Shown here: piece by piece, positions 4,394 through 50,661 of the stretch
How positions within the stretch are numbered: position 1 is the first letter of the stretch
Layout of the letters: each line of letters opens with the position of its first letter
Notes under the pieces: model-generated
The model's input: the letters and a program-made list of their open reading frames with translations, nothing else
Told to the model about the DNA's origin: nothing
Databases searched by the model: none
Position numbers and translations under genes: made by a program
NCBI GenBank assembly: GCA_948514155.1
Contig: CAOQYA010000004.1
Coordinates: forward strand, 855 to 64,854
DNA from: an uncultured Eubacteriales bacterium
GTDB lineage: Bacteria > Bacillota > Clostridia > Christensenellales > UBA1242
Direction of reading: 5' to 3'
Length of the DNA: 64,000 bases

Positions 4394-5398
4394 TTATCTG
4401 GAGAGAACTTCATCGTTAGGGTTTTTAACTATTTTGCTAAAGTCTGCTACGATTTGTTGCGAGTGACTATTATTCAATTTTTCCTCAAATTTATAAAGTT
4501 CATAATCTTTCATTTCTTTTGTTGCGCCGTCAAGATATAGTAAGGTGTTTTCATATGATGTATTTTCCGATAGAATGAAGTTATCGAGATTTCGAACAAT
4601 AAGAAAATTTTTTAAGTTTCTATGTCTGCATGCTTTAAGCATCTCTATTTGTTCTGGAGTAACTTGTTTTGGCAGATTATTTACTTTGTAATCTTTCATT
4701 GGATCGTTGCTTGTTAAAATGCAAAGCGTATCTTCTATTAAATTGAATTGATTGCCTGCTTCATACGCTATAAAATCTAGTGCAAGATTGGGATCGATAT
4801 TGGGAACTTCGTAAAGCATTTTAAAAAATGTTTCCATTCCATTAGAATAATTTTTTTGAAATTGTTTGTTGCAATAAGCACATTCTGATTGTATACATTT
4901 TTGAAGGGAAGAAACTTCTTCTTTGGTTTTTACTTTCTTCATAATTTGCATAGTTAAGCTCGTATTGCAGGAGTGTTGTTCTTCAATATACTCAAGCAAA
5001 ACTTTCGTTAATCCTTTCGTCGTTGGGCAATTTATGTTCGACAAATAAAGGTTTATAGTTTCTCCGCCATAATAATGAGTTAGTTCTTTCCCTGTCATTG
5101 TTTCAAGTTTTTTTAATATTGCAAAATCTTGTTGCTCAAGATGTGGCGCTACAGCGGCAAGCCTCGCATAATCCCACACATTTTTCATATGAGTTGCTCT
5201 TAATGCAACTTTACGCAATTGTGTCCAATCTAATTCTTTATAAAAGTAACCTCGAACATATGCCTCGCTTGCAAAATCTGCGCATCGGTCTGGATTGTCT
5301 AATTTTACAAGCAGATCAATTTTTTTTTGCATGCTCGCAATATCCCATGGTTGTAACCATTCGTGTAAAAGTTTATTTTTCGTTCTAAAAATTTTCAT
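4394..5398 (-). CDS. hypothetical protein (AT-rich orphan, 334 aa)
   Basis: Long ORF; ATG 5398 has AAGGAGAG 4 nt upstream. The longer 5596 start would overlap ylxM and its promoter. No motif recognised, no TM segment or signal peptide. Confidence 0.6.
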   Translation of the reverse strand: MKIFRTKNKLLHEWLQPWDIASMQKKIDLLVKLDNPDRCADFASEAYVRGYFYKELDWTQLRKVALRATHMKNVWDYARLAAVAPHLEQQDFAILKKLETMTGKELTHYYGGETINLYLSNINCPTTKGLTKVLLEYIEEQHSCNTSLTMQIMKKVKTKEEVSSLQKCIQSECAYCNKQFQKNYSNGMETFFKMLYEVPNIDPNLALDFIAYEAGNQFNLIEDTLCILTSNDPMKDYKVNNLPKQVTPEQIEMLKACRHRNLKNFLIVRNLDNFILSENTSYENTLLYLDGATKEMKDYELYKFEEKLNNSHSQQIVADFSKIVKNPNDEVLSR

Positions 5399-5459
5399 TA
5401 TATCTCTCCTTAAGCTCATTTTATCATAAATAAAATATTTGTCAATAGGGGATTTTTTG

Positions 5460-5767: not shown

Positions 5768-7075
5768 ATGGCGCTTTTTTCCTCATTATCAGATAGATTT
5801 AATCACATATTTTCCAAACTCACAAAGCGCGGAAGGCTGACCGAACTTGAAATTAAAGAAGCAATGCGCGAGGTGAGGATTGCTCTTCTTGAAGCCGATG
5901 TTAACTACATGGTGGCAAAGGACTTTGTTAAACGCGTTTCTGAAAAAGCGGTGGGTGACGAGGTTTTGAAGAGCCTCACGCCTTCGCAACAAGTGATTAA
6001 GATTGTTCGTGACGAACTGACTGAACTTATGAGTTCGAATAATCAAAAATTGACGATTTCTTCTGCACCGCCAACTATTATCATGCTTTGTGGATTGCAG
6101 GGCGCTGGAAAAACAACGATGTGCGCTAAACTTGCGGCACATTTAAAAAAGAGTGGCAAAAAACCTTTGCTTGTGGCTTGCGATATTTACAGACCGGCCG
6201 CGATTAGCCAGCTTCAAGTTGTTGGCAAGCAAGCAAACGCAGAAGTTTTTGAGCGCGGAACTCAAAACCCTGTTAAGACTGCAAAACAAGCGCTTGAACA
6301 TGCTAAAAAACAGGGCTTCGATGTTGTTATTCTCGATACAGCGGGGAGACTGCATATAAACGAAGAATTGATGGACGAACTTAAAGCCATAAAAAAAGAA
6401 GTTTGTCCGCATGAAATCTTGCTGACGCTTGACTCCATGACCGGTCAGGACGCCGTCAATGTTGCAGAGGCGTTTAATAACGCACTTGACGTGACCGGCT
6501 TTATTCTCACAAAACTTGACGGTGACACCCGCGGCGGCGCTGCGCTTTCGATTAAGGCTATCACTGGCAAGCCGATTAAGTTCACCGGTGTGGGTGAGAA
6601 AATTGGCGATATCGAGCCGTTCTATCCCGACCGCATTGCTAGCCGAATTTTAGGCATGGGCGATGTTCTGTCGCTTATCGAAAAGGCGCAAGAGGCTGTG
6701 ACCGAAGAAGAAGCCAAGGCGATGGAGAAAAAACTTAGAGAAAACTCCTTCACCTTTGAGGACTATCTTGTGCAAGTGGAGCAAATGAAGAAAATGGGTT
6801 CGCTGACTGATATTCTTGCAATGATCCCAGGAGCGAGCGCCAAACTTAAAGGCGTGCAAATTGACGAAAACGAAATTCAAATCAACAAACACATCATTCA
6901 ATCTATGACGCCGGAGGAGAGGAGAAATCCTGATATAATCAAAGCCTCGCGTCGTCAGAGAATTGCAAAGGGAAGCGGGACAAGTGTTCAGCAAGTGAAT
7001 GCGCTTCTTCGGCAATTCGCTCAGTCCAAAGAGATGATGAAGATGTTTAAGAACAAAAAGGGACTGAGATTTTAA
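5768..7075 (+). CDS. ffh: signal recognition particle protein Ffh
   Basis: SRP54 N and G domains (GLQGAGKTT, DTAGR, TKLDGD) and a Met-rich M domain. ATG 5768 follows the ylxM stop. Confidence 0.95.
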   Translation: MALFSSLSDRFNHIFSKLTKRGRLTELEIKEAMREVRIALLEADVNYMVAKDFVKRVSEKAVGDEVLKSLTPSQQVIKIVRDELTELMSSNNQKLTISSAPPTIIMLCGLQGAGKTTMCAKLAAHLKKSGKKPLLVACDIYRPAAISQLQVVGKQANAEVFERGTQNPVKTAKQALEHAKKQGFDVVILDTAGRLHINEELMDELKAIKKEVCPHEILLTLDSMTGQDAVNVAEAFNNALDVTGFILTKLDGDTRGGAALSIKAITGKPIKFTGVGEKIGDIEPFYPDRIASRILGMGDVLSLIEKAQEAVTEEEAKAMEKKLRENSFTFEDYLVQVEQMKKMGSLTDILAMIPGASAKLKGVQIDENEIQINKHIIQSMTPEERRNPDIIKASRRQRIAKGSGTSVQQVNALLRQFAQSKEMMKMFKNKKGLRF

Positions 7076-7200
7076 TCGGGGAGCGCGCGAGTGCCCCCTT
7101 GCCATGCGCAGCATTGGCAAGGGGGCGGGCGCCACGCCGCCGTGCGGCGTGGCGCTGGGCGGCCGGCATGGCCGGCCGAAACTCGCGCGCGGAGAGAACG
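7076..7200 (+). repeat. GC-rich structured intergenic element (three hairpins closed by a GCGCGC stem), copy A
   Basis: Closing stem 7082-7090/7181-7189 encloses perfect hairpins at 7092-7125, 7128-7154 and 7159-7177. The same architecture recurs at 34139-34275. Confidence 0.75.
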
Positions 7201-7255
7201 ATATATCTTCGCATATGCGAATTTATATAAAACAAAATTTACAAGGAGGAAAAAC

Positions 7256-7507
7256 ATGGCAGTTAAAATCAGACTTACAAGACTTGGAGACAAGAAATCA
7301 CCTTTCTACAGAGTTGTTGTTGCCGATTCAAGAAGCCCAAGAGACGGAAAGTTCGTTGAAATCATCGGAACATATGACCCTCTCAAAAACCCTGCAGAAA
7401 TCAAAATTGATGCAGAAAAAGCTTCAAAATGGCTCAAAAACGGCGCTACTCCAACAGAAACAGCTAAATCTGTGCTTGTGAAAGCGGGCGTTATTGAAAA
7501 GAAATAA
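7256..7507 (+). CDS. rpsP: 30S ribosomal protein S16
   Basis: [26 protein letters not shown] is the canonical S16 N-terminus, with AAGGAGG upstream. The track's N-terminal extension lies in the GC-rich element and is rejected. Confidence 0.95.
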
Positions 7508-10403: not shown

Positions 10404-10748
10404 ATGAAAAAGGAAAACAAAGTTAAAGGCGGAATTGGCGAAGCAAAAGTTTATCACTATCTTGAAAAAAGCGGCTACAAAATTTTAGAGACAAATTTTG
10501 AGAATATTTATGGAGAGATTGATATTATCGCTTTAAAAGATAGAAAAATTGTTTTTATTGAAGTTAAAGCGCGCTCGTCCTATGCTTTTGGCAGACCTTG
10601 CGAAGCAGTGACGCCATACAAACAAAACAAAATTCGTCAGGCGGCCGAAGCATATCTTATCAAAAAGAAACTATATGAGCGCGACATGAGTTTTGATGTT
10701 ATTGAAGTGCTGGACGACGAGATAAATCATTTAAAGAGTTGTTTTTAA
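10404..10748 (+). CDS. yraN: YraN family endonuclease (UPF0102)
   Basis: 114-aa ORF with GEIDIIA...VFIEVKAR, the PD-(D/E)xK-like YraN signature. Confidence 0.85.
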   Translation: MKKENKVKGGIGEAKVYHYLEKSGYKILETNFENIYGEIDIIALKDRKIVFIEVKARSSYAFGRPCEAVTPYKQNKIRQAAEAYLIKKKLYERDMSFDVIEVLDDEINHLKSCF

Positions 10749-12468: not shown

Positions 12469-14784
12469 ATGAGTAAATCAAAATCTAAAATTTCCTTAAT
12501 TTCATTTGCGATTTTATTCTGCCTTGTAACATTACTTGGAGGGCTGTGTTTATCATTCAATAAGCCGGTGGAAGTTGACAATGGCTTTTCTCATGCCGCA
12601 CCTCCGCAGCAGCCCAAAGATAACCAGGCTTGGACGGAAGAACGATTTACAAGTCCTATTTATTCAGACAGAATTATATCAAAACCTGAGCAACTTGCTT
12701 ACTTAGCGGCGAAAGTAAATATAGTGAAAGATCCAGAGGCTCAGCGTGGAACTTTTTTCCTTGAAACAACGATAGATTTGTCCGCGCATGTTTGGTCGCC
12801 AATAGGCACACAAGAATTTCCATTTATGGGTCAGTTAATCAGCCAAACCGGCAACGGAAAAATCACAGGCATGTTTGTGGAAAGGAGCGCAACGAGTGAT
12901 GTTCCGGCTAACGCAGGGCTTTTTGGTGTTCTTGCTGGTGAGGCTATTGTTGGCGGGATAAAATTAGAATATTCACTTGTTAATTGTCTTTCCCAATCAA
13001 CATCTTGCATTTCTGCAGGAGGCATTGCTGGAAGAATAAATGGTGGCAAATCAGCAGGCGTATATGAGTGCCAACTTGAAAATGTTTTTGTGTGGGGCCA
13101 ACAAAATGCCGGCGGCATAGTGGGTGATAGCATCGGAAGCGAAATGATAGTGGACTGTCACACTACATCTGGTGGAGTTGACAACCCTTCATGTGAAAAC
13201 GCTGGCGGCATAGTGGGCATCATAAGTGGCAGTGGTGGAATTAAAGCTTGCACGAATGGGAACACGGTTAAAGGCAAAGTTGCAGGCGGAATAGTTGGAT
13301 ATTCAGATAAAACCAGTGCATATATTTCGTCGTGCTCTTCAAGTGGAACAATAACCGCAACTATCGACGGCGGCATTGCGGGGCGATTTGTCGGAAGCAT
13401 TTCAAATTGTGAAAATACCTCTGCAGCAAGAGGTGGAATTGTTAACGAATTGTCGGGCGGAAGAATTACAAATTGCACAAACACTGGAAAAACCAAGGCA
13501 GGCATTGTTTACAGCGCAATGAATAAGTCTGTGATAAAAGATTGCGTTAACAGAGCTGCAAATCTAAAAGGCGGCATTGTTAACACGCTCACAAACAGCA
13601 CAATTCAAAATTGCACAAATTATGGTCAGGGCGTGAGTGGCGGCATTGCTTACACTTCTACGGGGACTTCAATAATTGAAGACTGCAAAAACTATGGAGC
13701 AAATTGCCAGGCCGGAATAGTTTGGTCAAGTTCCGGAACTATCAAGAATTGTTTTAATTATGCTTTAAATGCCGATAGTGGAATTGTTTACACTGCTGGA
13801 GGGTTAGTTGACTCTTGCGTCAATTATGGCACTTGCACCGCTGCGGGAATTTGCGGAAGGTTAAATGGTGGAATTGTTCAAAGTTGTGTTAATCGAGGTA
13901 ATGTTGACGGCGCAGGAATAGTGTATTCCGCACATGATGCGCAAATTAGAAGATGCGCAAATTATGGCGAAATAAGTGGCACATGCGCAGCTGGAATTCT
14001 TTCAGTGTCAGAATATTATGTCATAATCAAGAACTGCATCAATCAAGGAAACATAATAGGTGGCAACTATGGCGGAGGAATTATCGCCTACTTTGCACAA
14101 GACGGAGAAGTTACATGTTGCTCAAACAGCGGAACAATTCGCGGAGAAGATACTGCTTCTATTGGTGGAATTGTTGGATGTATTGAAGCAGGTTCAGTTG
14201 CCAAGTTTATAAGTTGCTTAAACACAGGAGCCATTGTCCTTACTGACGCTGTGACATGTGCCGGCGGCCTTTGCGGAATGATGTTGGATAGCCAATACAT
14301 TGAGTTTATCGGTTGTTTCACAAAGCATGATATTATCAACGAAACAACAGGGCTAAATATGGCCGTAATTTATGCGGGCAGCATGCTCGGACTTCAAATT
14401 GGATCTAATGACGGAAATGCACTGAAAGGCTGCGGGGCTGTTGTTGGAGGTGACGGGCTTATTGTTGGAAACAAGTTCTATGCCGACGCAACAAGCATTA
14501 ACCCCGAATACTTTGGAGCCGAAGCGTTGCCAATTAAGATTGACTCCTCTTATGCGCTTGTGTATGATATATCAACAGAAGGCCATGTTGCAGCAGTTGC
14601 TAATAGTATCGACTCTACACATGAAGATTTCTTCTCAGTTAATGATAATTTTATGGATGGTTATCCTGTGCCGAGAGATATATTTTGGATAGGAGAACAC
14701 ATAGAATACGCCAGCCATGGCGGCATTATTGCACTTTTGCAAAATATTGCTAATAATGTTGAAGAATACGACGGCAATGTTTAA
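12469..14784 (+). CDS. secreted or membrane-anchored GLUG-like repeat protein (predicted beta-solenoid)
   Basis: N-terminal signal/anchor (ISLISFAILFCLVTLLGGLCL). About 20 or more tandem ~19-25-aa units of the form C-x-N-x-G ... (A/G)GI(V/A). Strong GAGGAG SD. Confidence 0.8.
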   Translation: MSKSKSKISLISFAILFCLVTLLGGLCLSFNKPVEVDNGFSHAAPPQQPKDNQAWTEERFTSPIYSDRIISKPEQLAYLAAKVNIVKDPEAQRGTFFLETTIDLSAHVWSPIGTQEFPFMGQLISQTGNGKITGMFVERSATSDVPANAGLFGVLAGEAIVGGIKLEYSLVNCLSQSTSCISAGGIAGRINGGKSAGVYECQLENVFVWGQQNAGGIVGDSIGSEMIVDCHTTSGGVDNPSCENAGGIVGIISGSGGIKACTNGNTVKGKVAGGIVGYSDKTSAYISSCSSSGTITATIDGGIAGRFVGSISNCENTSAARGGIVNELSGGRITNCTNTGKTKAGIVYSAMNKSVIKDCVNRAANLKGGIVNTLTNSTIQNCTNYGQGVSGGIAYTSTGTSIIEDCKNYGANCQAGIVWSSSGTIKNCFNYALNADSGIVYTAGGLVDSCVNYGTCTAAGICGRLNGGIVQSCVNRGNVDGAGIVYSAHDAQIRRCANYGEISGTCAAGILSVSEYYVIIKNCINQGNIIGGNYGGGIIAYFAQDGEVTCCSNSGTIRGEDTASIGGIVGCIEAGSVAKFISCLNTGAIVLTDAVTCAGGLCGMMLDSQYIEFIGCFTKHDIINETTGLNMAVIYAGSMLGLQIGSNDGNALKGCGAVVGGDGLIVGNKFYADATSINPEYFGAEALPIKIDSSYALVYDISTEGHVAAVANSIDSTHEDFFSVNDNFMDGYPVPRDIFWIGEHIEYASHGGIIALLQNIANNVEEYDGNV

Positions 14785-32371: not shown

Positions 32372-34138
32372 ATGAAAAGAAGTCAAGTTGCTTCCAGATA
32401 CAAGTGGGACTTAAGTCAGTATGCAAAAAGTGAAGAAGATTTTCTTGCTCGGGCGAGAGCGCTAAAGAAATATCCCGATATTTTCAAAAAATATGAAAAC
32501 AAACTTTCAGACGATAAAAAACTTTTGGAAGTTTTGAATTTATCAAGCGAATATGCAAAAGAGGTGAGTCTTCTTGCCAATTTTGCGCAGCGAAAACTTG
32601 ACGAAGATTTAAATAATAGCCGCGCGAATGAAAATTTGCACATGCTTTTAAAGATTGACAATGACATCTCAGTTGCATCCTCTTTTATCACGCCGGAGAT
32701 TTCCGCTTTTTCGGACGAAAAGTTAAGCGCGCTGCAAAATGACAAGCGTTTTAAAGCGCATAGATTGTTTTTTAAGGACATCATTAGAGAAAAGCCACAC
32801 ATCTTGCCAAAGGCGGAGGAAAAACTGCTTTCCGGAATGGGCGAGTTTTTGGGTGGCTTTAGTGATAATCACGACAACTTTTCTGACGCCGACCTGAAAT
32901 ACAATGATATCAAAGACAGCCGCGGCAAAAATTATTCTTATCACTCTTCCAAATATGGACTTTACTTGAGAAGTGCGGACAGGCAGCTTAGGAAAAACGC
33001 TTTCAACGAACAAAATGGCGCATATGGGCGATATATCAATTTCCTTGCGGGAAATTATATTTCAGATGTTAAAGCCGACTGCTATTTTGCAAAGATTAGA
33101 AATTACAACTCGGCGCTTGAGCGTGCCATTCATGGCGAGGAGGCAAGTGTTAAGGTCTATAATCTGCTTATCGAATGTATTCACGAAAACCTGCCGATTT
33201 TATACAAGTTCTATGAAAAGAAAAGGCAGATTTTGGGGCTTGATAAGTTTTACATTTTCGACCAAGCCGCTCCGATTGGCAAGGGCTCGGCAAAAAAATA
33301 TGGCTATGACGAAGCTATTGAACTAATAAAAGATGCGGTCAAGCCTTTGGGCGAAGAATATGTTTCCCTTATTCAAAAAGCCAAGGACGAAAAGTGGATT
33401 GATGTTATGCCAAATGACGGCAAGGCGGGCGGAGCATATTCGTCCTCTTCATATGGCGCAAATCCAATTGTGCTGACAAATTTCACCGGCAATTTTGAGT
33501 CTGTTAGCATTTTAGCGCATGAACTTGGACATGCGATGCATTCTTATTTTTCACAGCGCGTTCAAATTTTTGAGGAAAGCGACTATGTTATCTTCGTGGC
33601 GGAGGTCGCATCAACTGTCAACGAAATGCTTTTAAGATTAAAGAAACTTAATGAAAGTCGTTCGCTTATAGAGAAGCGAGAGATTATCGACGACATTTTC
33701 TGTGATGTTAAAAGCACAATCTTCAGACAGACAATGTTTGCCGAATTTGAAGAATGGGTGCATGCCGAATATGAGGCCTCGCGTCCACTTTCTAAAGACA
33801 GATTGTGCCAAAAATATTTGGAACTTAACAAACTTTATTTTGGTAAAAAAGTGGCACTTACAAAAGAGACCCAATATGAATGGGCAAGAATTCCGCATTT
33901 CTTTAGGCCATTCTATGTCTACAAATATGCCACCGGTCTTATCAGTGCGCTCAACATTGTTAGCCGCATTTTGAATGGCGAGGAGGGTGCAGTAGAAAAA
34001 TATCTAAAATTCCTTTCTGCGGGCTGCACGAAGGACCCAATATCGCTTTTGAGGGATGCGGGATGTGACCTGGAGAAAAAGGAAACTTTTGACGAAGTGT
34101 TTGCTCTGCTGAAAAGGCTGCTTTGCGAATTTAAATAG
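32372..34138 (+). CDS. pepF: oligoendopeptidase F (M3B)
   Basis: HELGHAMH zinc motif and ~590 aa. ATG 32372 preferred; a GTG at 32366 is also possible. Confidence 0.9.
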   Translation: MKRSQVASRYKWDLSQYAKSEEDFLARARALKKYPDIFKKYENKLSDDKKLLEVLNLSSEYAKEVSLLANFAQRKLDEDLNNSRANENLHMLLKIDNDISVASSFITPEISAFSDEKLSALQNDKRFKAHRLFFKDIIREKPHILPKAEEKLLSGMGEFLGGFSDNHDNFSDADLKYNDIKDSRGKNYSYHSSKYGLYLRSADRQLRKNAFNEQNGAYGRYINFLAGNYISDVKADCYFAKIRNYNSALERAIHGEEASVKVYNLLIECIHENLPILYKFYEKKRQILGLDKFYIFDQAAPIGKGSAKKYGYDEAIELIKDAVKPLGEEYVSLIQKAKDEKWIDVMPNDGKAGGAYSSSSYGANPIVLTNFTGNFESVSILAHELGHAMHSYFSQRVQIFEESDYVIFVAEVASTVNEMLLRLKKLNESRSLIEKREIIDDIFCDVKSTIFRQTMFAEFEEWVHAEYEASRPLSKDRLCQKYLELNKLYFGKKVALTKETQYEWARIPHFFRPFYVYKYATGLISALNIVSRILNGEEGAVEKYLKFLSAGCTKDPISLLRDAGCDLEKKETFDEVFALLKRLLCEFK

Positions 34139-34275
34139 GGTGGCGCGCCTGTGCCCGAAAGGCCGCAGGCCTTTCGGGCGTGCCCACGGTGCGGACGCGG
34201 CTTGAAAAGCCGTGCCGCCCCGTGGGCGGGGCCGCCTTTTTTTCTCAAAAAAAGGCGGCGACATGCGCGCCCCGA
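34139..34275 (-). repeat. GC-rich structured intergenic element (three hairpins closed by a GCGCGC stem), copy B
   Basis: Closing stem GGCGCGC (34142-34148)/GCGCGCC (34265-34271) encloses hairpins at 34153-34179, 34182-34227 and 34231-34259. Its reverse complement begins like copy A (TCGGGG-GCGCGC...GCCNCCTT). Confidence 0.7.
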
Positions 34276-34286
34276 GACCATCCGAT

Positions 34287-34319
34287 AAAAAACGCTTAAG
34301 AATTCTCTTAAGCGTTTTT
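34287..34319. terminator. bidirectional rho-independent terminator
   Basis: Perfect 14-bp stem AAAAACGCTTAAGA/TCTTAAGCGTTTTT with a 4-nt loop, between convergent pepF and the Cys-rich gene. Confidence 0.8.
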
Positions 34320-34320
34320 C

Positions 34321-34524
34321 CTAACATTTTTGCCCGAGCAAGAACCCTCCCGCGAAAATAAGTAGGCTCATAGGGATTGCAACATTTATGCAGCCGCAAG
34401 AGCCTCCACACGGCATGGGACAAGAACATCCATAATGCGGCGGAAAGGGTGGAGGGCAGCACGGGGAACAAAAATTGTGGCACGGCATGTCAAAATAGCA
34501 GCCTTGCCTATAGCACTGTGTCAT
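34321..34524 (-). CDS. small Cys/Pro-rich protein with a C-terminal hydrophobic segment (67 aa)
   Basis: ATG 34524 lies 6 nt after GGAGGTG. It has 12 Cys (CSPCC, GCSCPMPCGGSCGC) and many Pro, then INVAIPMSLLIFAGGFLLG. Confidence 0.6.
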   Translation of the reverse strand: MTQCYRQGCYFDMPCHNFCSPCCPPPFPPHYGCSCPMPCGGSCGCINVAIPMSLLIFAGGFLLGQKC

Positions 34525-34626
34525 TGTAAGCACCTCCCATAATCATGATATTAGCGGGAAGTTTTTAAAGTGCATCAGAAAAACATTAGGAGCAAAGTTT
34601 CTTTAAACTGTTTCAGACAAAGTATG

Positions 34627-42911: not shown

Positions 42912-43095
42912 TTTTGTGGGCTGCAGCAATCTTGCGGACTACTCATTCAGCACCAAAGGAATTTTGAAGCGGGAACTTGCTTTTTGCCAGGAATGCCTGA
43001 CGGGGATGTATGAAGAAATCGGCCGCCTGCAAGTGCCTAAAGCGGTGGAAGCGCCCTTTAAACTTAAATCACGAATTAAAAAGGAGAAAAAATGA
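42874..43095 (+). CDS. small zinc-ribbon-like protein
   Basis: 73 aa with strong AGGAGG. Cys pairs Cx4C and CxxC (CDFVGC ... CQEC) and a basic tail. Confidence 0.55.
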   Translation: MQIEKVSKVTKCDFVGCSNLADYSFSTKGILKRELAFCQECLTGMYEEIGRLQVPKAVEAPFKLKSRIKKEKK

Positions 43096-44966
43096 AAAAG
43101 ATAACAAAAAATGAGGAAGAGATAGTTAAGTTTGTGCTTGACGACTTTACTTCTCGTCAATATGCGAGAAAGAGTTTTGAGACACAATGGCAAATGAACA
43201 TGAACTTTTACATGGGCAATCAGTTCTGCGACATTGGCTATGGCGGAGAAATTGAAGACCTTGACAAACAATATTTCTGGCAGGAGAGGGAGATTTTTAA
43301 TCACATTGCGCCAATTGTGGATGTGCGACTTGCAAAACTTGGCAAAGTCCGCCCTAAGACATCCATTTTGCCAGCCTCTAATGACGAAAGAGATGTTTAC
43401 GCTGCAAAGGTCTCCAAAAAGATACTCGACAGCGTTTCAAACAAACTTGCACTTTCCAAAAAAATTAATGACGCAATGAACTGGAGCGAAATTTGCGGAA
43501 CAAGTTTCTATAAAGTCACATGGAACCCATGTCTTGGACAAGTTGTTGCAAAAGAGGAAGACGGGAAAGAGGTCAGAAGCGGTGAGGTGGAAGTCACCGT
43601 CTGCTCGCCTTTTGAAATTTTTCCAGACAGTTTCACATGCGAAAGCCTTGACGCCTGCCAGAGCATTATTCATGCGCGTGCGCTGGATGTTGAAAAAATT
43701 AAAAGCACATATGGCATTGAAGTTGAGGGGCAGGAGATAAATGTTTTTTCGCTTGACTCAACAAGTGTTGGCCTTGGCGGCCTCGGCTATTCATCTTCCG
43801 CGCCTAAGATTTGCCACGGAGTTAAGAAGTCGAGCGCGCTTGTTATTGAAAGATACGAAAAGCCGAGCCCTTCGCGGCCAAACGGTCGCCTGACAATTGT
43901 TGTCGGGGGCAGACTCTTCTTTGACGGCGACCTGCCATATGCAGTCGGCAAAGATGGGGTGAGAGATTTTCCGTTTGTTAAGCAGGTGTCGTTAAATCAA
44001 GTTGCATCTTTCTGGGGTGCGAGCGTGATTGACAGGCTTATTCCTGTTCAGCGCGCATTTAATGCCGTGAAGAACAGAAAACATGAATTCATGAACCGAT
44101 TGACAATGGGCGTGCTTAAAGTTGAAGACGGCTCGATTGATATTGACAACCTCGAAGAAGAAGGACTTTGCCCGGGCAAGATATTAGTTTATCGCCAAGG
44201 CTCAATCGCTCCTGAATTTTTATCGGGAGACAACATCTCTTCAAGTTTCAGCGACGAAGAGGAAAAACTGATAAGCGAGTTTCAAACTATAAGCGGCGCA
44301 AATGAGATGCTTAACAATGACAACATCTCCACAAAGATGTCGGGCGTGGCACTGGAAGTTATGGTGGAGCAGGACGAACTTAAACTTAACAACACCGCCG
44401 ACAACATCAAACAGAGCGTGATTGCAATTTCACAAATGGTGCTTAGGCTTTACAAGCAATTTGCAATCATTCCGCGTCTTGCAAAGATTGTTGGCGACAA
44501 CGGCGAAGTGGAACTTTTCTATTTCAACTCCAGCGACATTTCCAGCGACGACATTCAACTTGAAGCGCAAAACGAACTTGGCGAAAGCCTTGCTCAGCGC
44601 AGACAAATGGTCTTTGACCTCATTGATGCCGGTCTTCTAAACGACACCGATAAGGGCATGTCAAACAAAATGAAAGTTAAAGCACTCGACCTTCTTGGCT
44701 TCGGAATTTGGGAGAACGCGCAAGATACGAACGAACTTCACCTTAAGAAAGCGGAGAACGAGAACCTTAAACTCACATCCGGCGGAAAGGTGAAAGTGCT
44801 TGAAATTGACAATCACGAACTGCACATTGACCGTCACATTGCCTACATGCTTAGCGGCGACTACGAGAAAAAAGCCGCCATTAACCCAGCGATTGAAGAA
44901 AGATTTCTTTCGCACATTCGTGAGCACAAAAAACTTGAAAACAGCGAAAATAACGAAAAAAATTAA
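43092..44966 (+). CDS. phage portal protein (putative)
   Basis: 624 aa. The WQMNMNFYMGNQ motif near the N-terminus, the size and the position directly upstream of scaffold and capsid genes all fit a portal. No Walker A, so it is not TerL. Confidence 0.65.
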   Translation: MKKITKNEEEIVKFVLDDFTSRQYARKSFETQWQMNMNFYMGNQFCDIGYGGEIEDLDKQYFWQEREIFNHIAPIVDVRLAKLGKVRPKTSILPASNDERDVYAAKVSKKILDSVSNKLALSKKINDAMNWSEICGTSFYKVTWNPCLGQVVAKEEDGKEVRSGEVEVTVCSPFEIFPDSFTCESLDACQSIIHARALDVEKIKSTYGIEVEGQEINVFSLDSTSVGLGGLGYSSSAPKICHGVKKSSALVIERYEKPSPSRPNGRLTIVVGGRLFFDGDLPYAVGKDGVRDFPFVKQVSLNQVASFWGASVIDRLIPVQRAFNAVKNRKHEFMNRLTMGVLKVEDGSIDIDNLEEEGLCPGKILVYRQGSIAPEFLSGDNISSSFSDEEEKLISEFQTISGANEMLNNDNISTKMSGVALEVMVEQDELKLNNTADNIKQSVIAISQMVLRLYKQFAIIPRLAKIVGDNGEVELFYFNSSDISSDDIQLEAQNELGESLAQRRQMVFDLIDAGLLNDTDKGMSNKMKVKALDLLGFGIWENAQDTNELHLKKAENENLKLTSGGKVKVLEIDNHELHIDRHIAYMLSGDYEKKAAINPAIEERFLSHIREHKKLENSENNEKN

Positions 44967-45022
44967 AAAAATCACAAAAAAACAGCAATTTTAAATAAAT
45001 TTTCTTAAATTTAGGAGGAAAT

Positions 45023-45634
45023 ATGGAAGAGAAAATAATCGAGGAACAACCAGCGGCAGAGCCGGCAGAGGCTTTAGATAAAGCAAATGAGAGTGTCGAG
45101 AGCGCAGCGGGCTCCTCGAATGAAAATGGGAACTTAGGCAAGTTTAAAACGCCGGAGGCTCTTTATCAAGCATACAAGGCGCTTGAGGCCGAGTTCACCA
45201 GAAAAAGCCAAAGGCTGAGCGAACTGGAAAAAGACAAAACGGAGAAAGCAACCGTCGATGAAAAACGCGTGGATGACGAACTTTCTTCCTTCCTTTCGAA
45301 ACGAAGCGAGGCAAGTCCTTATGCCGACAAACTTAAATCTAAAAGTTTGCAAGAGGGCGGGAGAGTTGATTTTGAAGAAATGCTGGCTGCAATCTTACTT
45401 GAAAATTTAGAGACAGGCTCTTCAAAACTCGACAACCCAATTATAACAAAATATGTTTTTCAAGACGAAGAACTAAAAAATCATGTTATCGAAAATTACA
45501 TGAAAGAACTTAAAACGGGAATGCCTCCATTTGTTATCAGTGGCGACAAAGGCGAAAAAGTGACCGGTCAAAAGCCGGCCACTCCGGCGTCGCTTGCAGA
45601 AGCAAAAAAGATTGTGGAGGACATGTTCAGTTAA
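45023..45634 (+). CDS. phage scaffolding protein (DUF4355-like)
   Basis: Acidic helical 203-aa protein. GKFKTPEALYQAYKALEAEFTRKSQRLSELE resembles scaffold proteins encoded just before HK97-fold capsid genes. Confidence 0.6.
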   Translation: MEEKIIEEQPAAEPAEALDKANESVESAAGSSNENGNLGKFKTPEALYQAYKALEAEFTRKSQRLSELEKDKTEKATVDEKRVDDELSSFLSKRSEASPYADKLKSKSLQEGGRVDFEEMLAAILLENLETGSSKLDNPIITKYVFQDEELKNHVIENYMKELKTGMPPFVISGDKGEKVTGQKPATPASLAEAKKIVEDMFS

Positions 45635-45651
45635 AATTTTAGGAGGAAAAA

Positions 45652-46878
45652 ATGATTACATTACAAAGTGCGGAAAATGCACTCAAATCTGTTTATCTGG
45701 GTGTTATTGCAAATCAGCTTAACATTGCATCAAACCCACTTCTCACAAAAATTAAGAGAACAAACAAAGATGTTTGGGGAAAGGAAGTTATTAAACTTGC
45801 TCCAATAGGCATCAACGGCGGAATTGGAGCCGGCACAGAGACGGGAACTCTTCCTGCTGCTGTGGGCAACACATATGCTCAATTTAAGGCAACACTTAAA
45901 AACCTTTATGGAAGAATTGAATTGTCTGACAAAGCAATTCGCGCTTCACAAAACAGTGCAGGCGCTTTTGTTAACCTTCTTGCTGACGAAATGGAAAGCC
46001 TTGTTAAAGCAAGCACTTTCAACCTTGGAAGAATGCTTTATGGCGACGGAACAGGAATTGTTGCAAGAGCAATCGCTAACACCGACGACGGCATGATACA
46101 ATGCTCGAAAGTTAACACACTTGTTGAGGGAATGCTTATCGATTTCTGGAATGATCAGGGACAGCAGGAACTTATCAAATGCAAAGTTTTATATGTTGAC
46201 AGATTAAACAAGAAAATCAAGATTGACAAAAACTTTAATGTAAAAGAAGAAGGCAGCAACATTGTTGTGCAAGGCTCAAGAAACAATGAAATCACCGGCC
46301 TTGGCGCAATCTTCTCTGACTCTGAGACCCTTTATGGACTTACAAGAGCGGAGCACAAATGGCTTTCTCCATACAAATCAACAACAAGCACCGAGATTTC
46401 TGACAGCCTCATTCAAACTGCGATTGACTTCCTTGACGAGAACGCTGACTCTAAAATCAACTTTATCGCTTGCTCAAGCCCAGTGAGAAGAGCATATCAG
46501 GCATATCTCAACGCTTACAGATCCAATGTTGACATCATGAACCTTGAAGGCGGCTTCAAAGCAATTTCTTACAACGGAATTCCACTTGTTGCTGATAGAT
46601 TTGTTGATGAAGACACAATGTATCTTCTTAACACTAACGACTTTGTTATGCACGAACTTTGCGACTGGAAATGGATCGAAAATCAAGACGGCGGCGTGCT
46701 GAAACAAAACTCGAACAACGCAACTTACACTGCAACACTTGTTAAATATGCCGAACTTATCTGCGATAAGCCAAACGGTCAGGCAAAAATCAGCGGAATT
46801 AAATCTACTGTAACAAACCCTTTTGCTTCAAATGTTACAGTTAATGTTCCAAGCACAACACCTGAAGTGACTGAGTAA
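45652..46878 (+). CDS. phage major capsid protein (HK97-fold type)
   Basis: 408 aa. Blocks such as LYGRIELSDKAIRASQ, AFVNLLADEMESL and FNLGRMLYGDGTG are typical of Firmicute phage MCPs. Strong SD. Confidence 0.75.
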   Translation: MITLQSAENALKSVYLGVIANQLNIASNPLLTKIKRTNKDVWGKEVIKLAPIGINGGIGAGTETGTLPAAVGNTYAQFKATLKNLYGRIELSDKAIRASQNSAGAFVNLLADEMESLVKASTFNLGRMLYGDGTGIVARAIANTDDGMIQCSKVNTLVEGMLIDFWNDQGQQELIKCKVLYVDRLNKKIKIDKNFNVKEEGSNIVVQGSRNNEITGLGAIFSDSETLYGLTRAEHKWLSPYKSTTSTEISDSLIQTAIDFLDENADSKINFIACSSPVRRAYQAYLNAYRSNVDIMNLEGGFKAISYNGIPLVADRFVDEDTMYLLNTNDFVMHELCDWKWIENQDGGVLKQNSNNATYTATLVKYAELICDKPNGQAKISGIKSTVTNPFASNVTVNVPSTTPEVTE

Positions 46879-46886
46879 AAACAAAG

Positions 46887-46917
46887 AAGGGGCTAAAATT
46901 TAGGCCCCTTTACTTTT
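46887..46917 (+). terminator. hairpin / partial terminator after the capsid gene
   Basis: Stem AAGGGGC/GCCCCTT with a 10-nt loop, followed by TACTTTT. It may attenuate or stabilise the transcript. Confidence 0.4.
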
Positions 46918-46927
46918 AGGAGAAAAA

Positions 46928-47242
46928 ATGAAAGACCAAATTTTGCTTGAGGGCGACCCATTTTATATCGCGGAGCGAATAAAAGAGATTGACGAAAACT
47001 ATTTTTTGGTGTTTAACAAAAAAAGAGGCGTTTTCGAATTGCATAATTCTTCGCAGCGTTCGTCCACTTTCGCACTTACAATTCCATATGACACGCTTGA
47101 CGAGAGGGCTATCTTTCTCGCTCGCAAGACCAGGCGGGAGAACATCGATAAATTGATTGAAGAGATGGACAAAGAAAACGAACTGCGCACCAAAAACCTT
47201 GTCAAGAGGGCGGCCGAGCAAATACAAGAGGTGATTGAATGA
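46928..47242 (+). CDS. hypothetical phage-module protein (104 aa)
   Basis: Strong SD (AGGAGAAAAAATG) and a 4-nt overlap with the next gene. No family recognised. Confidence 0.55.
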   Translation: MKDQILLEGDPFYIAERIKEIDENYFLVFNKKRGVFELHNSSQRSSTFALTIPYDTLDERAIFLARKTRRENIDKLIEEMDKENELRTKNLVKRAAEQIQEVIE

Positions 47243-47784
47243 AAATTAACGAAGTAATCAAACTAAGTTGCGATTTTTTGGGGCTGGGAGAGTTGAAAAG
47301 CGAACTTGATGCAGGAGGCGAAATTGAGAACGAAAAACTCAGCAGGCTGCTTACATGCTTAAATCTTGCATATGAGGAGATTGTCACCGAATATCTTCCC
47401 ATTCTCACAACAGAAAAAGTGGGAGTTTTAGGCGGCAAAGTTCTTTATTCTTCGCTTTCGAAGCCTATCAGCGGCATATCTTGCGTCAAAAACGAAAAAG
47501 GCGAGGAGATTTGTTATCAAGTTTCAGCCGACCATATCGACATCGACGCAAAAAGTGCGGAGATAACTTACCAGATTATGCCAGAAAAATGCGAGTTTGG
47601 GGAGGAAGTGAATGTGCTTTTTCCAGAAAGACTGCTAGCATATGGCACCGCCAGGGAATATCTGTTTATCGAAGGAATGTCGGACGAGGCTATTTTATAT
47701 GAAAAGCGTTTCAAGGAAGCACTTGTGAATTTCGTTCGCAAGAAATCGATTGCTCGCCTTCCAAAAAGAACATGGAAGGTGTAA
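47239..47784 (+). CDS. putative head-tail adaptor (P22 gp4 / T7 gp11-sized)
   Basis: 181 aa, placed after the capsid gene and before a ~490-aa protein, which parallels podovirus head-completion order. Assigned by size and synteny only. Confidence 0.35.
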   Translation: MKINEVIKLSCDFLGLGELKSELDAGGEIENEKLSRLLTCLNLAYEEIVTEYLPILTTEKVGVLGGKVLYSSLSKPISGISCVKNEKGEEICYQVSADHIDIDAKSAEITYQIMPEKCEFGEEVNVLFPERLLAYGTAREYLFIEGMSDEAILYEKRFKEALVNFVRKKSIARLPKRTWKV

Positions 47785-47794
47785 GGAGGCAAAT

Positions 47795-49270
47795 ATGTTT
47801 AATAAAAAAGATTTTGCCACAAGAAAAAGTAAATCGATAAAGGTCAGACTTGATAGATTTGACGAGTGGAAGGAGGGCGCCGACGGGGCGACCGTCAAAG
47901 TGGGGCAGACTGTTGATAGTTACAACTTTGCAACTAAGACGGGCGCGCTCACGGCGGGGCTGGGACTGAAAAAGCCCACCCTTCCAAGAAAGCAAACTGA
48001 AAACGAAATGTTTGAGTTTGATGTGGACGCCACCGAGGTGCGTGCGCTTTATCCCTTCACCACCTATGACAATCTGACCGAAACGGACAGATATTATCTT
48101 TTCTATCTCGACACCGGCAATCAACTTTGCTTCTTTGACCTTCTGGGCACAAAATCTATGCGCCGAACGGAAGTGTCATTCAACGAAATTCCTAACGCCG
48201 CTGCATTTAAAATCAACAGCGATGTTGACACCGTTTTCTTTTCTTCGCCGTCTGATAAGACGCTTGGCTACAACAACGCCGGGCCGGCTTACTATGACAA
48301 CATTCCAAAGTTCACTTCCGGATGCTGGCACGGGCCATATCTGTTTATGGTCACTGTGGGCGATACAAACAAACTTATCTACAGCAAGAAAAGGGTGGAC
48401 ATTTGGAACTACGACAATGTTGAGGAGGTTCCTTTGCCATATGACATCCGCGGGGGACTGACCAAACTTGTGTCGCTGCGTGACAGCATGTATCTTTTCA
48501 GAAACTACGGCATAACGAGGCTCAATCTCTATTCGCTCAAGGCGGAACTGTCATTCACAAACATATTTGAGTCGCATTCTTACATCTATCCAAGGTCGAT
48601 TTCGATATATGGCGACAAAATTGTCTTTCTCACCGACGAAGGTCTCTTTTCGGTGGAGGGCAATGCTGTTAACAAAATTAAAATGCCAATTGAAGACAAT
48701 ATTATGCCGGCAAATCACGACTGCATTGGCGTTTGCTTTAACGGAAAATACTATCTTGCTTGCAAATATGACTTTAAAGACGACGATAAAATCGGCGAGG
48801 AGATAAACGGCTGCAAGAACAATGCGCTTATCGAGTTTGACCTTGAAAACAAGTTGTTTGAAATCTGCCGCGGCGTGGATATTAGCGATATGACCGTTAT
48901 TCAAACCCCAAAAGCGAGAAAACTTTTTGCCTCCGTTCGTGGAGAGCACAAGGCGCATCTTGGTGAGGTCGCGCATAACGGCATGATTTTCGATAAACCT
49001 TTGCATAAAGTGTGGAAGGTCGAAAATCTCGATTTTGGCTTCGGCGGCAGGGACAAATGCGTGACCGATATCACAATTAAGCCGGGTGCTTCGGGGAAAT
49101 TCACCATTGCCTCGGATGTTGATAGTCAAACAATTGATGTTCCGCTCTCGACACGCACTCAGCGCCTGCGCACCCGAGTGTTTGGCAAGACTTTCAAAAT
49201 TTTGATAGAGTCGGACGAGCCTTGTCCTGTTATTTCCTGTCCCGAACTTAGTGTTAAGGTTCTTTTATGA
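47795..49270 (+). CDS. putative tail hub/nozzle-like structural protein (P22 gp10-sized)
   Basis: 491 aa from ATG 47795, with AAGGAGG upstream. Beta-rich sequence with repeated hydrophobic/aromatic strands. Assigned by size and synteny only. Confidence 0.35.
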   Translation: MFNKKDFATRKSKSIKVRLDRFDEWKEGADGATVKVGQTVDSYNFATKTGALTAGLGLKKPTLPRKQTENEMFEFDVDATEVRALYPFTTYDNLTETDRYYLFYLDTGNQLCFFDLLGTKSMRRTEVSFNEIPNAAAFKINSDVDTVFFSSPSDKTLGYNNAGPAYYDNIPKFTSGCWHGPYLFMVTVGDTNKLIYSKKRVDIWNYDNVEEVPLPYDIRGGLTKLVSLRDSMYLFRNYGITRLNLYSLKAELSFTNIFESHSYIYPRSISIYGDKIVFLTDEGLFSVEGNAVNKIKMPIEDNIMPANHDCIGVCFNGKYYLACKYDFKDDDKIGEEINGCKNNALIEFDLENKLFEICRGVDISDMTVIQTPKARKLFASVRGEHKAHLGEVAHNGMIFDKPLHKVWKVENLDFGFGGRDKCVTDITIKPGASGKFTIASDVDSQTIDVPLSTRTQRLRTRVFGKTFKILIESDEPCPVISCPELSVKVLL

Positions 49271-49434
49271 AAATTTTTGATAAAAGTTATTCGGCTTTTA
49301 TATCAAGGCTTTCAAAGAAAGGAGAAAAGCGGGAAATGAAAAATTTAATCGAAGAGATTTTATCTGATAACAATCAAATGGCAAAAAATGGGCAGAGTGA
49401 AGACTGCATTCTGCCGACAGGAAAGAAAGTTTGA
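49267..49434 (+). CDS. small hypothetical protein (55 aa; not in ORF track)
   Basis: Hand-translated. ATGA overlap with the upstream stop and a TGATG overlap with the downstream start. An alternative internal start at 49336 follows AGGAGAAAAG. Confidence 0.4.
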   Translation: MKIFDKSYSAFISRLSKKGEKREMKNLIEEILSDNNQMAKNGQSEDCILPTGKKV

Positions 49435-49682
49435 TGTGGCAAGAAATTGTGAGCGTGATAATCAGCAACGGAATTTTTGCGGTGCTGTTCGTGCTCTTGT
49501 TTTGCTATCAACTTAAGGACAGCAAAAGACGGGAAGAGAAATATCAAAAGACGATTGAAGATTTGACCGAACACATAGGCGTGATTGATAAAATTAAGGA
49601 CGATGTGGAATATCTTAAGGACGCATTAACTCCAAAAAGAAGGAGGAAAAATGAAACTGAAAAACTTAATTCGCTCTTATAG
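49434..49682 (+). CDS. BhlA/UviB family holin-like protein
   Basis: NGIFAVLFVLLFCYQLKDSKRREEKY closely resembles the BhlA signature (GPFAVLF..LLFYV.K.SKERE). One TM segment plus a coiled coil. Confidence 0.7.
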   Translation: MWQEIVSVIISNGIFAVLFVLLFCYQLKDSKRREEKYQKTIEDLTEHIGVIDKIKDDVEYLKDALTPKRRRKNETEKLNSLL

Positions 49683-49929
49683 TTTTTGGACGACGCTTGC
49701 CGGTGCACTTTGCATTTTAATGAGCGCGCTTGGCAGAGCCTTCAGCTTTAAGGTGGAAGAAAAAATCATATCAGACATAGTTATGGCCATTGCCGGAGTG
49801 CTTGTGGCTGTTGGCATTGTTTCAATGCCTGCAAAAAAGGAGGAAGGGGAAAATGCTTCTTCCGATTTGCCGCAAGAGGCGCAGGAGAATTCTGACGCAC
49901 AAGACGAAGAAGGCGCGGACCAAAAATAG
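49651..49929 (+). CDS. two-TM holin-like membrane protein
   Basis: 92 aa with AAGGAGG upstream. Two hydrophobic helices, then an acidic tail. Confidence 0.5.
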   Translation: MKLKNLIRSYSFWTTLAGALCILMSALGRAFSFKVEEKIISDIVMAIAGVLVAVGIVSMPAKKEEGENASSDLPQEAQENSDAQDEEGADQK

Positions 49930-49933
49930 CAAC

Positions 49934-49962
49934 AAAAAAGGGGGCAATCGCCCTCTTTTTTA
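49934..49962 (+). terminator. rho-independent terminator
   Basis: Stem AAAGGGGGC/GCCCTCTTT (one G-U pair) followed by a T-run. Confidence 0.7.
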
Positions 49963-49965
49963 TTA

Positions 49966-49994
49966 TTGACTTTTGCTGCGAAATGTGATAGACT
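49966..49994 (+). promoter_or_regulatory. sigma-A-type promoter
   Basis: TTGACT, a 17-nt spacer, then TAGACT preceded by TGTGA. Confidence 0.5.
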
Positions 49995-50013
49995 TAAAAA
50001 GTAGGAGAGAAAC

Positions 50014-50661
50014 ATGGAAAAAGTGTTAAACAAGAAATTTTTTGATAATATTTTGGAAGTTTCCGCAGCCGGTCAGGACGGCATTGTGCAATTGGTGCTT
50101 AAAAACGGGCTCGTTAAGAACTTTGATTTGAAACTTATGCAAGAGACGGACAGAGAATTTAAAAAAGATCCAATCATTTGGCAGATGCTTGAGACAGCGG
50201 CCGGAGCAGCGGCTGGCAGAAGTAGAATGAATTTTGAAGATAAAGTCGAGTTCTTGGGCGACGACGCACTTCTGCACATTAAAGCCACAGATTTTAATCA
50301 CCCTGTAGATTTTAAAGGAACATACAATGTTTCAAATGCTACTCATATTCCGGTTGGAAGAAAAGACGGCACAAGAGTCTCGCACCCAGCCCTATATGCA
50401 ATCGCTTTTTCGGCATATATTGAGGGCGCAGCAAACGGCATCAAAATGTTCGATAGCGAACTTTTACTTGATAAAGATTGTGCCTCTGACCTTGTGAGTG
50501 CATATAAAACCTTCAATTCTTTAGTTCTCGGGCATGACCTTGAAGACAGTCAAGAATTTGCAAGACTTTTCAAAAATAAAGCCGACGGCGAAACGCAAAG
50601 AGTGCTTTCAAAGCAAAAAGAAGAGAGCCAAATTGATAATATTCTATCAAACTTGAAATAA
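50014..50661 (+). CDS. hypothetical protein (215 aa), its own transcription unit at the right edge of the phage-like module
   Basis: Strong SD (AGGAGAG), own promoter and terminator. No TM segment and no lysin or regulator motif recognised. Confidence 0.55.
   Translation: MEKVLNKKFFDNILEVSAAGQDGIVQLVLKNGLVKNFDLKLMQETDREFKKDPIIWQMLETAAGAAAGRSRMNFEDKVEFLGDDALLHIKATDFNHPVDFKGTYNVSNATHIPVGRKDGTRVSHPALYAIAFSAYIEGAANGIKMFDSELLLDKDCASDLVSAYKTFNSLVLGHDLEDSQEFARLFKNKADGETQRVLSKQKEESQIDNILSNLK

Follow-up and report, generated by a model that had tools for sequence, protein, structure and literature searches.

Results

Two palindromic elements in one window

The ylxM-ffh-rpsP operon considered here lies in a 64,000-nucleotide stretch of an uncultured Eubacteriales genome (contig CAOQYA010000004.1; hereafter the window). 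Between the stop codon of ffh (TAA, 7073–7075) and the Shine–Dalgarno (SD) sequence of rpsP (7244–7250; ATG at 7256) it carries a GC-rich block that we call copy A. A second such block, copy B, begins 3 nt past the stop codon (TAG, 34136–34138) of pepF, identified as a peptidase M3 gene by its open reading frame (ORF) and Pfam match. Each unit consists of a terminal inverted repeat, the closing stem, round exactly three near-perfect palindromes, so that either strand folds into a four-way junction. We lean towards the view that A and B are short, non-coding, structure-defined palindromic insertion elements, a mobile or mosaic repeat of uncultured Christensenellales-like gut Clostridia. The parts of copy A and its downstream neighbour are as follows.

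7077–7199, + strand: whole inserted block of copy A (~122 nt), bounded by the ffh stop on one side and the ancestral rpsP leader module on the other; flanks align as TAAT before it and GATATA after it
7083–7091, + strand: closing stem, 5′ strand, GCGCGCGAG; partner 7182–7190 (fold and inverted-repeat search)
7093–7126, + strand: hairpin 1, 12 bp, 100% complementary, with a 10-nt tip that gives 3 extra bp (repeat search and fold); arms GCCCCCTTGCCA (7093–7104) and TGGCAAGGGGGC (7115–7126)
7129–7155, + strand: hairpin 2, 12 bp, 3-nt loop CGT, 100% complementary; arms GCGCCACGCCGC (7129–7140) and GCGGCGTGGCGC (7144–7155) from the inverted-repeat search
7160–7178, + strand: hairpin 3, 8 bp, 3-nt loop ATG, 100% complementary; arms CGGCCGGC (7160–7167) and GCCGGCCG (7171–7178) from the inverted-repeat search
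7182–7190, + strand: closing stem, 3′ strand, CTCGCGCGC; partner 7083–7091 (fold and inverted-repeat search)
7200–7255, + strand: not part of the element; ancestral ffh-rpsP spacer module of GATATA, small hairpin, TTTATATAAA and SD, intact after the insertion

A preliminary description, made from the letters alone, had proposed this closing stem with three hairpins, and direct reading, repeat search and folding all recover it; the architecture stands, but each arm had been placed 1 base too low and is shifted by +1 here. The setting between the ffh stop and the rpsP SD is also as described, and spurious ORFs do cross copy A on both strands, as the same description had it. The minimum-free-energy fold of 7070–7205 is exactly the four-way junction, at −97.8 kcal/mol, as compared with −66.6 ± 3.5 kcal/mol for dinucleotide shuffles, none of 200 of which folded as well (z −8.9). 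Copy A has a GC content of 0.80 and the window as a whole one of 0.434. Of the GC islands in the 64 kb, only A and B are non-coding; a third (57881–57972) falls within a subtilase gene.

Copy A is not an assembly artefact, because its spacer sequence is the same in at least seven independent assemblies, metagenome-assembled genomes (MAGs) or Logan contigs. It does cause coverage drop-outs or assembly breaks: short-read contigs of several runs break within 7121–7164, and sequences L008 and L009 begin inside the element or exactly at its edge. One variant contig from the DNA runs shows six differences, all within or adjoining copy A and mostly in loop, junction or flank, at a depth too low to trust. 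Three RNA runs were candidates for carrying the sequence; their contigs miss the element or derive from other organisms. The segments 7123–7134 and 7157–7168 (GGGCGGGCGCCA and GGGCGGCCGGCA), made up of junction sequence and the starts of hairpins 2 and 3, nearly repeat each other in direct orientation, a hint that the hairpin modules may have originated by local duplication.

Copy B confirms the second element of like architecture that had been noticed beforehand, and is made up of the following parts.

34142–34271, + strand: whole element, fold −104.5 kcal/mol, z −8.6
34142–34152, + strand: closing stem, 5′ strand, GGCGCGC-C-TGT; partner 34261–34271 (fold)
34153–34179, + strand: hairpin 1, 12 bp perfect, loop GCA, 100% complementary (repeat search)
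34181–34228, + strand: hairpin 2, ~21 bp with three single-base bulges, loop GAA (fold); longer than that of copy A
34231–34259, + strand: hairpin 3, 13 bp perfect, GCCGCCTTTTTTT/AAAAAAAGGCGGC, loop CTC, 100% complementary (repeat search)
34261–34271, + strand: closing stem, 3′ strand, ACA-T-GCGCGCC; partner 34142–34152 (fold)

A bidirectional terminator-like hairpin (34288–34319) stands 16 nt downstream of copy B. Just past the element and this shared terminator lies a 70-aa Cys/Pro-rich ORF (34321–34533, − strand; ...CSPCCPPPFPPHYGCSCPMPCGGSCGC...), convergent on pepF. Copies A and B have in common only the GCGCGC core and the first 4–8 bases of each stem. Their k-mers give chance matches only elsewhere in the window (for example 14 nt in a coding region at 57191), and ~10 kb of extra sequence from same-species contigs contains no further copies.

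Filled and empty sites in relatives

Eighty Ffh-related loci at 70–95% identity were taken from GTDB genomes, namely MAGs of uncultured Clostridia or Christensenellales-like bacteria from animal guts, and the ffh-rpsP spacer was extracted from ~75 of them; the DNA runs that contain the window sequence itself are mostly mouse gut metagenomes. The spacer measures 50–60 nt in most of the ~75 relatives; the window, at 180 nt, and L013, at 154 nt, exceed this. The site is empty in the sister species L010 (58 nt), and the closest relatives, L010, L011 and L012, all lack an insertion, so the hairpins are not conserved in orthologous spacers, which was one half of the refuting condition named in the preliminary description. 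L013, however, has a 91-nt element (L013:1554–1644) of the same architecture at the same position as copy A. Its closing stem, GGGCGCGCAA, shares the GCGCGC core with copy A, and its hairpins are unrelated.

In a neighbour-joining tree of ffh DNA, the window pairs with L010 and L013 with L012, so that each pair has one member with an element and one that is empty. On this distribution, the simplest history is two independent insertions at one spot; the alternative is a single gain followed by at least four precise losses. Judged from these spacers, copy A is a real insertion of ~122 nt, not an ancient conserved leader. The module that follows it (GRTATA, a small hairpin, TTATATAAA and the SD) is found in nearly all of the ~75 relatives, with or without an element, and could be an rpsP leader, a promoter or an attenuator. 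In the window its small hairpin is TCTTCGCATATGCGAA, and the module gives a sub-threshold Rfam match to ‘caiA RNA’ (29.7 bits, cutoff 55.5, E 0.0024). In the 228-nt spacer of L019, small hairpins whose loops are of the TTA type (GTGCCTTAGGCAC, TGCATTATGCA, GTGCGCATTATGCGC and others) are clustered; they may represent a different or decayed hairpin-cluster insertion.

Similar behaviour was found at other loci. The elements at L021:6521 and L026:2924 occupy the same gene junction, at which the genes are 2–15 nt apart in ~25 other species; their closing stems are similar (GGCGGAAG and GGCGAGAAAG) and their hairpins unrelated. L072 carries one element between rimM and trmD, a four-unit array between ppx-like and mreB-like genes and a two-unit array after minE, and the tandem mosaics in L072 and L040 have conserved linkers. 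In L074 (15500–15680) an element is flanked by a 25-nt direct repeat, ATGTAGAAGGAAATATCGCGAAGCG, in a block whose start directly adjoins the T-tract of a terminator; in the sister species L071 the element is missing along with its flanking sequence, the direct repeat included. The elements, single or in tandem mosaics, are thus found repeatedly at the same permissive places: close behind stop codons, between convergent genes and in operons.

A family defined by shape

The family was described as an intergenic closing stem of at least 6 bp enclosing exactly three simple hairpins, with at least 78% of bases paired. Copies A and B pass a scan with this descriptor, and nothing else of the kind in the window does. 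When every candidate closing stem in 1.4 Mb of relatives was folded, the scan returned 27 three-branch, 21 two-branch and 2 four-branch matches, as compared with 2 weak three-branch, 11 two-branch and 0 four-branch matches in a block-shuffled control. A perfect-stem scan gave 11 three-hairpin junctions, a few weak two-hairpin ones and none with four hairpins, while scanning the opposite strand yielded the same element set. Three tRNA-associated structures and one probable coding match were left out of the 27, and ~25 elements were kept (all from the structure scan).

L012 to L026: L012:5848; L013:1554; L021:943 and 6521; L026:2924, 8817 and 13902
L032 to L040: L032:9292; L038:3507 and 18194; L040:3198 and 3335
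L072 to L088 and the window: L072, seven elements; L073:4885; L074:15567; L078:4074 and 12380; L088:6403; copies A and B

The dispersed repeat family that had been suspected from two copies is thus borne out by copy B, L013 and the ~25 elements in relatives. Its members are 65–130 nt long, with closing stems of 6–25 bp, and all are intergenic, several of them 0–7 nt past a stop codon and others between convergent genes or within operons. Their GC content ranges from 0.23 to 0.80 in host genomes of 0.28–0.55 GC, so the ‘almost pure GC’ character noted beforehand for copy A is not a trait of the family: copies in relatives go down to 23% GC. GCGCGC pairs and GC islands, tried as family markers, were found only in A, B and L013 and were dropped once AT-rich members appeared. 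Three subfamilies can be told apart by the closing stem: the GCGCGC core in A, B and L013; GGCGAGAAAG-like stems in L026, L032 and L021; and ACTATGTGATG in L040, L072 and the metagenome loci described below. As read from their sequences, members of a subfamily have the closing stem in common and not the hairpins.

Structures of another sort lie next to tRNA genes. At L012:4768–4880, L014:623–737, L027:202–323 and L043:109–222, an inverted copy of a tRNA T-arm pairs with the 3′ half of an adjoining minus-strand tRNA, and encloses a conserved hairpin (GCAAAGATTT..AATCTTTGC) and a terminator, so that a three-branch junction is mimicked; in L012 two of these units stand in tandem. They are possibly an integration-site scar or a separate conserved RNA.

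Compensatory change in one closing-stem subfamily

The two adjacent units of L040 have an identical closing stem, ACTATGTGATG/CATCACATAGT, and different hairpins. Metagenome contigs were searched for these two 11-mers only, placed 45–75 nt apart and with the interior unconstrained. Of the 20 loci found, 15 (16 matches) hold three-hairpin junctions; the same pattern gave 0 loci in viral contigs. Interiors in this subfamily are of two types, alpha and beta; the units share a conserved 5′ domain (TTATATTATCGGAAGCCGAAC, hairpin, GGTGAGGCTGATGGTCATACAT) and a constant TTATATT on the 3′ side. The metagenome units carry TTATATT at both ends without variation, which marks it as part of the element or of its target and not as a duplication. 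Two samples contained five dispersed copies each, with housekeeping genes as neighbours (RF2, Ddl, thioredoxin reductase and RNase Y). Five units are co-directional with, and directly past the stop codon of, the upstream gene, while 3–4 are in the opposite orientation; this mixture fits mobile DNA better than a cis-acting RNA. Three further loci with ACTATGTGATG/CATCACATAGT termini (L091:574–642, L096:3152–3221 and L098:1075–1144) are long perfect palindromes, single hairpins with 25–33 bp arms that run into the flanks.

MAFFT with RNAalifold on mixed alpha and beta units recovered the closing stem only, since the interiors are not alignable by sequence, and this alignment was replaced by one from a covariance model built from eight alpha units. 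The model finds the beta and L072 units in consistent orientation and adds a unit at L093:1096–1178. Aligned with this model, 19 distinct units have 95.7% of their cells paired, and 21 of the 34 pairs have changed on both sides. Double changes occupy 87 cells, as compared with 25.3 ± 4.7 in shuffles (0 of 500 as high) and 7–26 in slid-partner controls, while one-sided changes of the G-U type occur in only 5 cells. Fitting the alignment to the structure raises the pairing to some extent, but a large contrast with the slid controls remains. The subfamily therefore shows strong compensatory change that is almost purely Watson–Crick: closing stems are conserved and the hairpin arms change by paired substitutions.

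Across 24 elements the stems are likewise almost purely Watson–Crick, and the spacers between hairpins are 0–5 nt long and unconserved. G-U pairs number 19 of 933 on the gene-sense (for copy A, ffh-sense) strand and 3 of 922 on the other. This small bias is equally compatible with tolerance of G-U pairs in RNA and with a C-to-T mutation bias on the leading or sense strand; GC skew is positive throughout the window. The asymmetry was accordingly rejected as decisive proof of selection on RNA, because the mutation bias predicts the same pattern. The same signature of compensatory change is known in REPINs, where it has been ascribed to folding as single-stranded DNA for the RAYT transposase (PMC3116915).

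Other features of the window

Three kilobases downstream of copy A is a gene for a UPF0102/YraN-like (NERD nuclease-related) protein (10404–10745), a candidate structure-specific nuclease of a widespread family that is probably unrelated to the elements. A phage-like block (43092–50658) opens with a P22-like portal protein gene (43092–44963), followed by several ORFs without a Pfam match. Two long ORFs have no Pfam match even at E 0.01: one of 771 aa (12469–14781), inserted between trmD-side genes and rplS, and one of 341 aa (4397–5419, − strand), divergent from ylxM and also called in same-species MAGs.

Discussion

A mobile or mosaic repeat is the reading of copies A and B that we marginally favour. 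By analogy with REPIN/RAYT systems and with the ends of IS200/IS605 insertion sequences (IS), the elements would spread at the DNA level: a trans-acting enzyme would recognise a single strand in its folded form. Copies no longer able to fold would fail to propagate, and stems would thereby be kept perfect; copies would persist at permissive intergenic positions, where promoters and ribosome-binding sites are undamaged. Survival at such positions only may be the reason why elements hug stop codons and why the rpsP leader was left intact. Copy A would necessarily be transcribed within ylxM-ffh-rpsP, and its RNA is predicted to form a hyperstable junction, most plausibly a passive barrier to 3′-to-5′ exonucleases that stabilises the upstream cistron, and not a sequence-specific regulator.

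A bolder form of this idea, which we consider distinctly unlikely, is that the element is coded by its shape: the machinery would read only the fully paired, Holliday-like topology of the four-way junction and a few bases of sequence at the ends. Each of the three arms could then diverge as long as its two sides did so in step, with the fold conserved and the sequence not, and mobilisation might depend on a junction-specific nuclease or recombinase, with no classical transposase. Were this so, shape-coded elements could supply ready-made hyperstable RNA or DNA junctions for co-option by the host.

Several observations weigh against mobility. The 59 window ORFs of at least 100 aa include no transposase, RAYT, IS200/IS605 protein, integrase or reverse transcriptase, and the metagenome copies adjoin housekeeping genes, with no transposase or RAYT beside them. 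Neither the copy A/L010 nor the L013/L012 junctions show a visible target-site duplication, and eight runs contained no empty-site reads or excision joints. The window genome has only two copies in ~75 kb, few for a repeat that spreads successfully. The alpha covariance model, built on an AT-rich subfamily, does not detect A or B, and the homology of the GC-rich copies (A, B and L013) with AT-rich subfamilies rests on shape, context and insertion behaviour rather than on sequence. Furthermore, the structure scan selects for folding, so covariation among its matches is not independent evidence, the stem-only metagenome subfamily being the independent test; and even there, compensatory change would arise equally from selection on RNA.

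We rate each of the rival readings below a mobile or mosaic repeat. In a host-beneficial cis-acting RNA, the junction in the mRNA would block 3′ exonucleases, shield the downstream cistron from 5′ decay or serve as an RNase III site, its coaxially stacked helices giving ~20 bp, and would uncouple the expression of ffh from that of rpsP. The position of copy A within the operon and of copy B between the pepF stop and a terminator would suit such a role, as would the extreme stability of both folds, the strong compensatory change, the excess of G-U pairs on the gene-sense strand and the fact that eight AT-rich copies of one subfamily keep the same hairpin order relative to the upstream gene. We nevertheless think it unlikely: the closest relatives lack the element at the same sites, orientation is mixed in the best-sampled subfamily, loops are minimal and unconserved, the G-U bias can stem from mutation, and the share of G-U pairs (2%, with 5 one-sided changes against 87 double ones) is very small for an RNA family. 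Almost purely Watson–Crick pairing, equally good on both strands, and several copies whose junctions are fully paired with 0–1 unpaired bases would agree with a host function in DNA, in which the folded strand or cruciforms would be sites, recognised independently of sequence, for gyrase or HU (as at BIMEs), for junction enzymes or for lagging-strand priming or restart factors. However, the elements show no tie to landmarks of replication or recombination, no protein partner emerged, their density is low and their presence or absence between sister species speaks against an essential role, so that we hold this function to be very unlikely.

That the units, especially the tandem ones behind a TATAAT-like sequence, are independent genes for trans-acting or decoy small RNAs transcribed from their own promoters is suggested by the arrays in long intergenic regions and by L072, in which each unit is preceded by ...TATAATATAAAC.... 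Yet the TATAA abuts the closing stem, so that a transcript starting 6–8 nt downstream would miss its 5′ strand; the motif belongs to the conserved linker and is found also in the opposite orientation; and A and B have no promoter-like site in their flanks, A lies inside an operon and no terminator follows the units. We regard small-RNA genes as extremely improbable. Chance GC-rich palindromes or an assembly artefact, for which the frequent breakage of short-read contigs inside copy A might be taken to speak, can be virtually dismissed in the face of z values near −9 against shuffles, recurrence in independent assemblies and 27 three-branch matches against 2 in the shuffle.

Short structured repeats such as REP, BIME, MITE and NIME elements shape mRNA stability, operon polarity, recombination and genome assembly, and to our knowledge have received hardly any attention in the uncultured Clostridia that are dominant in animal guts. 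The present family is unusual in that the conserved feature is the topology of a four-way junction with perfect Watson–Crick arms, in that arm sequences turn over almost completely between copies with common ends, and in its apparently independent insertions at the same position of a core ribosomal-protein operon. Two questions become tractable with it: whether selection for the fold acts on the replicating element or on RNA of the host, and by what enzyme such a fold is recognised. In practical terms, such elements interrupt short-read assemblies and give rise to spurious ORF calls, and sequence-based repeat finders would overlook them.

Comparison with known repeat families

REP, BIME and REPIN elements are recognised by a short imperfect palindrome tagged with GTAG/CGTC, by pairs of inverted REPs, by a cognate RAYT (a Y1 HUH transposase) and by tens to hundreds of copies per genome; the malE-malF REPs are known to stabilise upstream mRNA. 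The elements described here resemble those of Enterobacteria and Pseudomonas in being intergenic, palindromic, non-coding and often GC-rich, in following genes and in occurring singly or as tandem mosaics with linkers. They differ in having a closing stem with three unrelated hairpins in place of one 20–40 bp palindrome or inverted doublet, in the far lower conservation of copies within one genome, in their low copy density (2 per ~75 kb in the window genome; at least 5 per metagenome sample for the ACTATGTGATG subfamily) and in the lack of a RAYT in the window. On direct reading, GTAG, CGTC, CTAC and GACG are all absent from copy A, and in none of A, B and L013 is hairpin 1 related to hairpin 3, so there is no inverted REP doublet. 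A REP/BIME-like assignment, one of those offered in the preliminary description, therefore fails in the strict sense, and the RAYT or IS200/IS605-type Y1 gene that it proposed to look for is not among the 59 window ORFs of at least 100 aa. REPINs do share the compensatory changes that keep hairpins, and have also been drawn in an alternative ‘clover’ fold (PMC3116915).

MITEs are small, non-coding, intergenic and insertion-polymorphic, with terminal inverted repeats and stably folding transcripts (PMC3184786, PMC10969869). The likeness to MITEs such as Correia/NEMIS, RUP, bcr1, ERIC and QMITE lies in the terminal inverted repeats, the presence/absence polymorphism and the intergenic sites. In contrast with these, no target-site duplication was seen and no parent IS with matching ends was found, either among the window ORFs or beside the metagenome copies. 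Typical MITEs are alignable throughout, whereas here the three-palindrome interiors differ almost wholly between copies with common ends; MAFFT fails to align alpha with beta interiors, or the interior of A with that of B. The suggestion of a palindrome-associated, MITE-like element was thus in the right neighbourhood as regards the ends and the polymorphism, and not as regards target-site duplication, alignable copies or a parent IS.

Other candidates among described structures fell away. Integron attC sites share the reliance on a folded single strand over sequence, a position directly past the upstream stop codon and variable length, but here there is no R″/R′ core (GTTRRRY), no pattern of extrahelical bases, no cassette array and no intI nearby; the ends are GCGCGC, the flanks are core housekeeping genes (ffh/rpsP and pepF) and the window ORFs include no integrase, so attC sites are ruled out. 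So is a tRNA-like cloverleaf, since ARAGORN found 0 genes in the window and the arms are 8–13 bp with 3-nt loops. Intrinsic terminators were excluded because no U tract follows (GGAGAGAAC after A, CCGAGACC after B) and a terminator scan gave only internal pseudo-sites in B. With Rfam 15, a check that had been proposed at the outset, copies A and B match no described RNA family: only the signal recognition particle RNA passes the gathering threshold in the window, the best sub-threshold match over A or B at permissive E-values reaches 24 bits against a cutoff of at least 40, and the L013, L040 and L072 loci gave nothing relevant.

The likeness to the neisserial intergenic mosaic elements (NIME), in which conserved dRS3 inverted repeats bracket variable RS blocks, and to pneumococcal BOX (A-Bn-C) lies in short inverted repeats that bracket variable modules and in tandem mosaics, and is seen in the subfamily of L040, L072 and the metagenome loci. 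The sequences and organisms are other ones, the interior is here always three hairpins, and there is no known link to phage or to an IS110-type integrase. No family with a conserved three-hairpin four-way junction was found in published reviews of small repeats (PMC3184786, PMC10969869, PMC2229807) or by literature searches, and the four-way-junction repeat family is apparently undescribed. It is best read as a structured repeat of the REP/BIME/NIME/MITE kind that is a member of none of these families.

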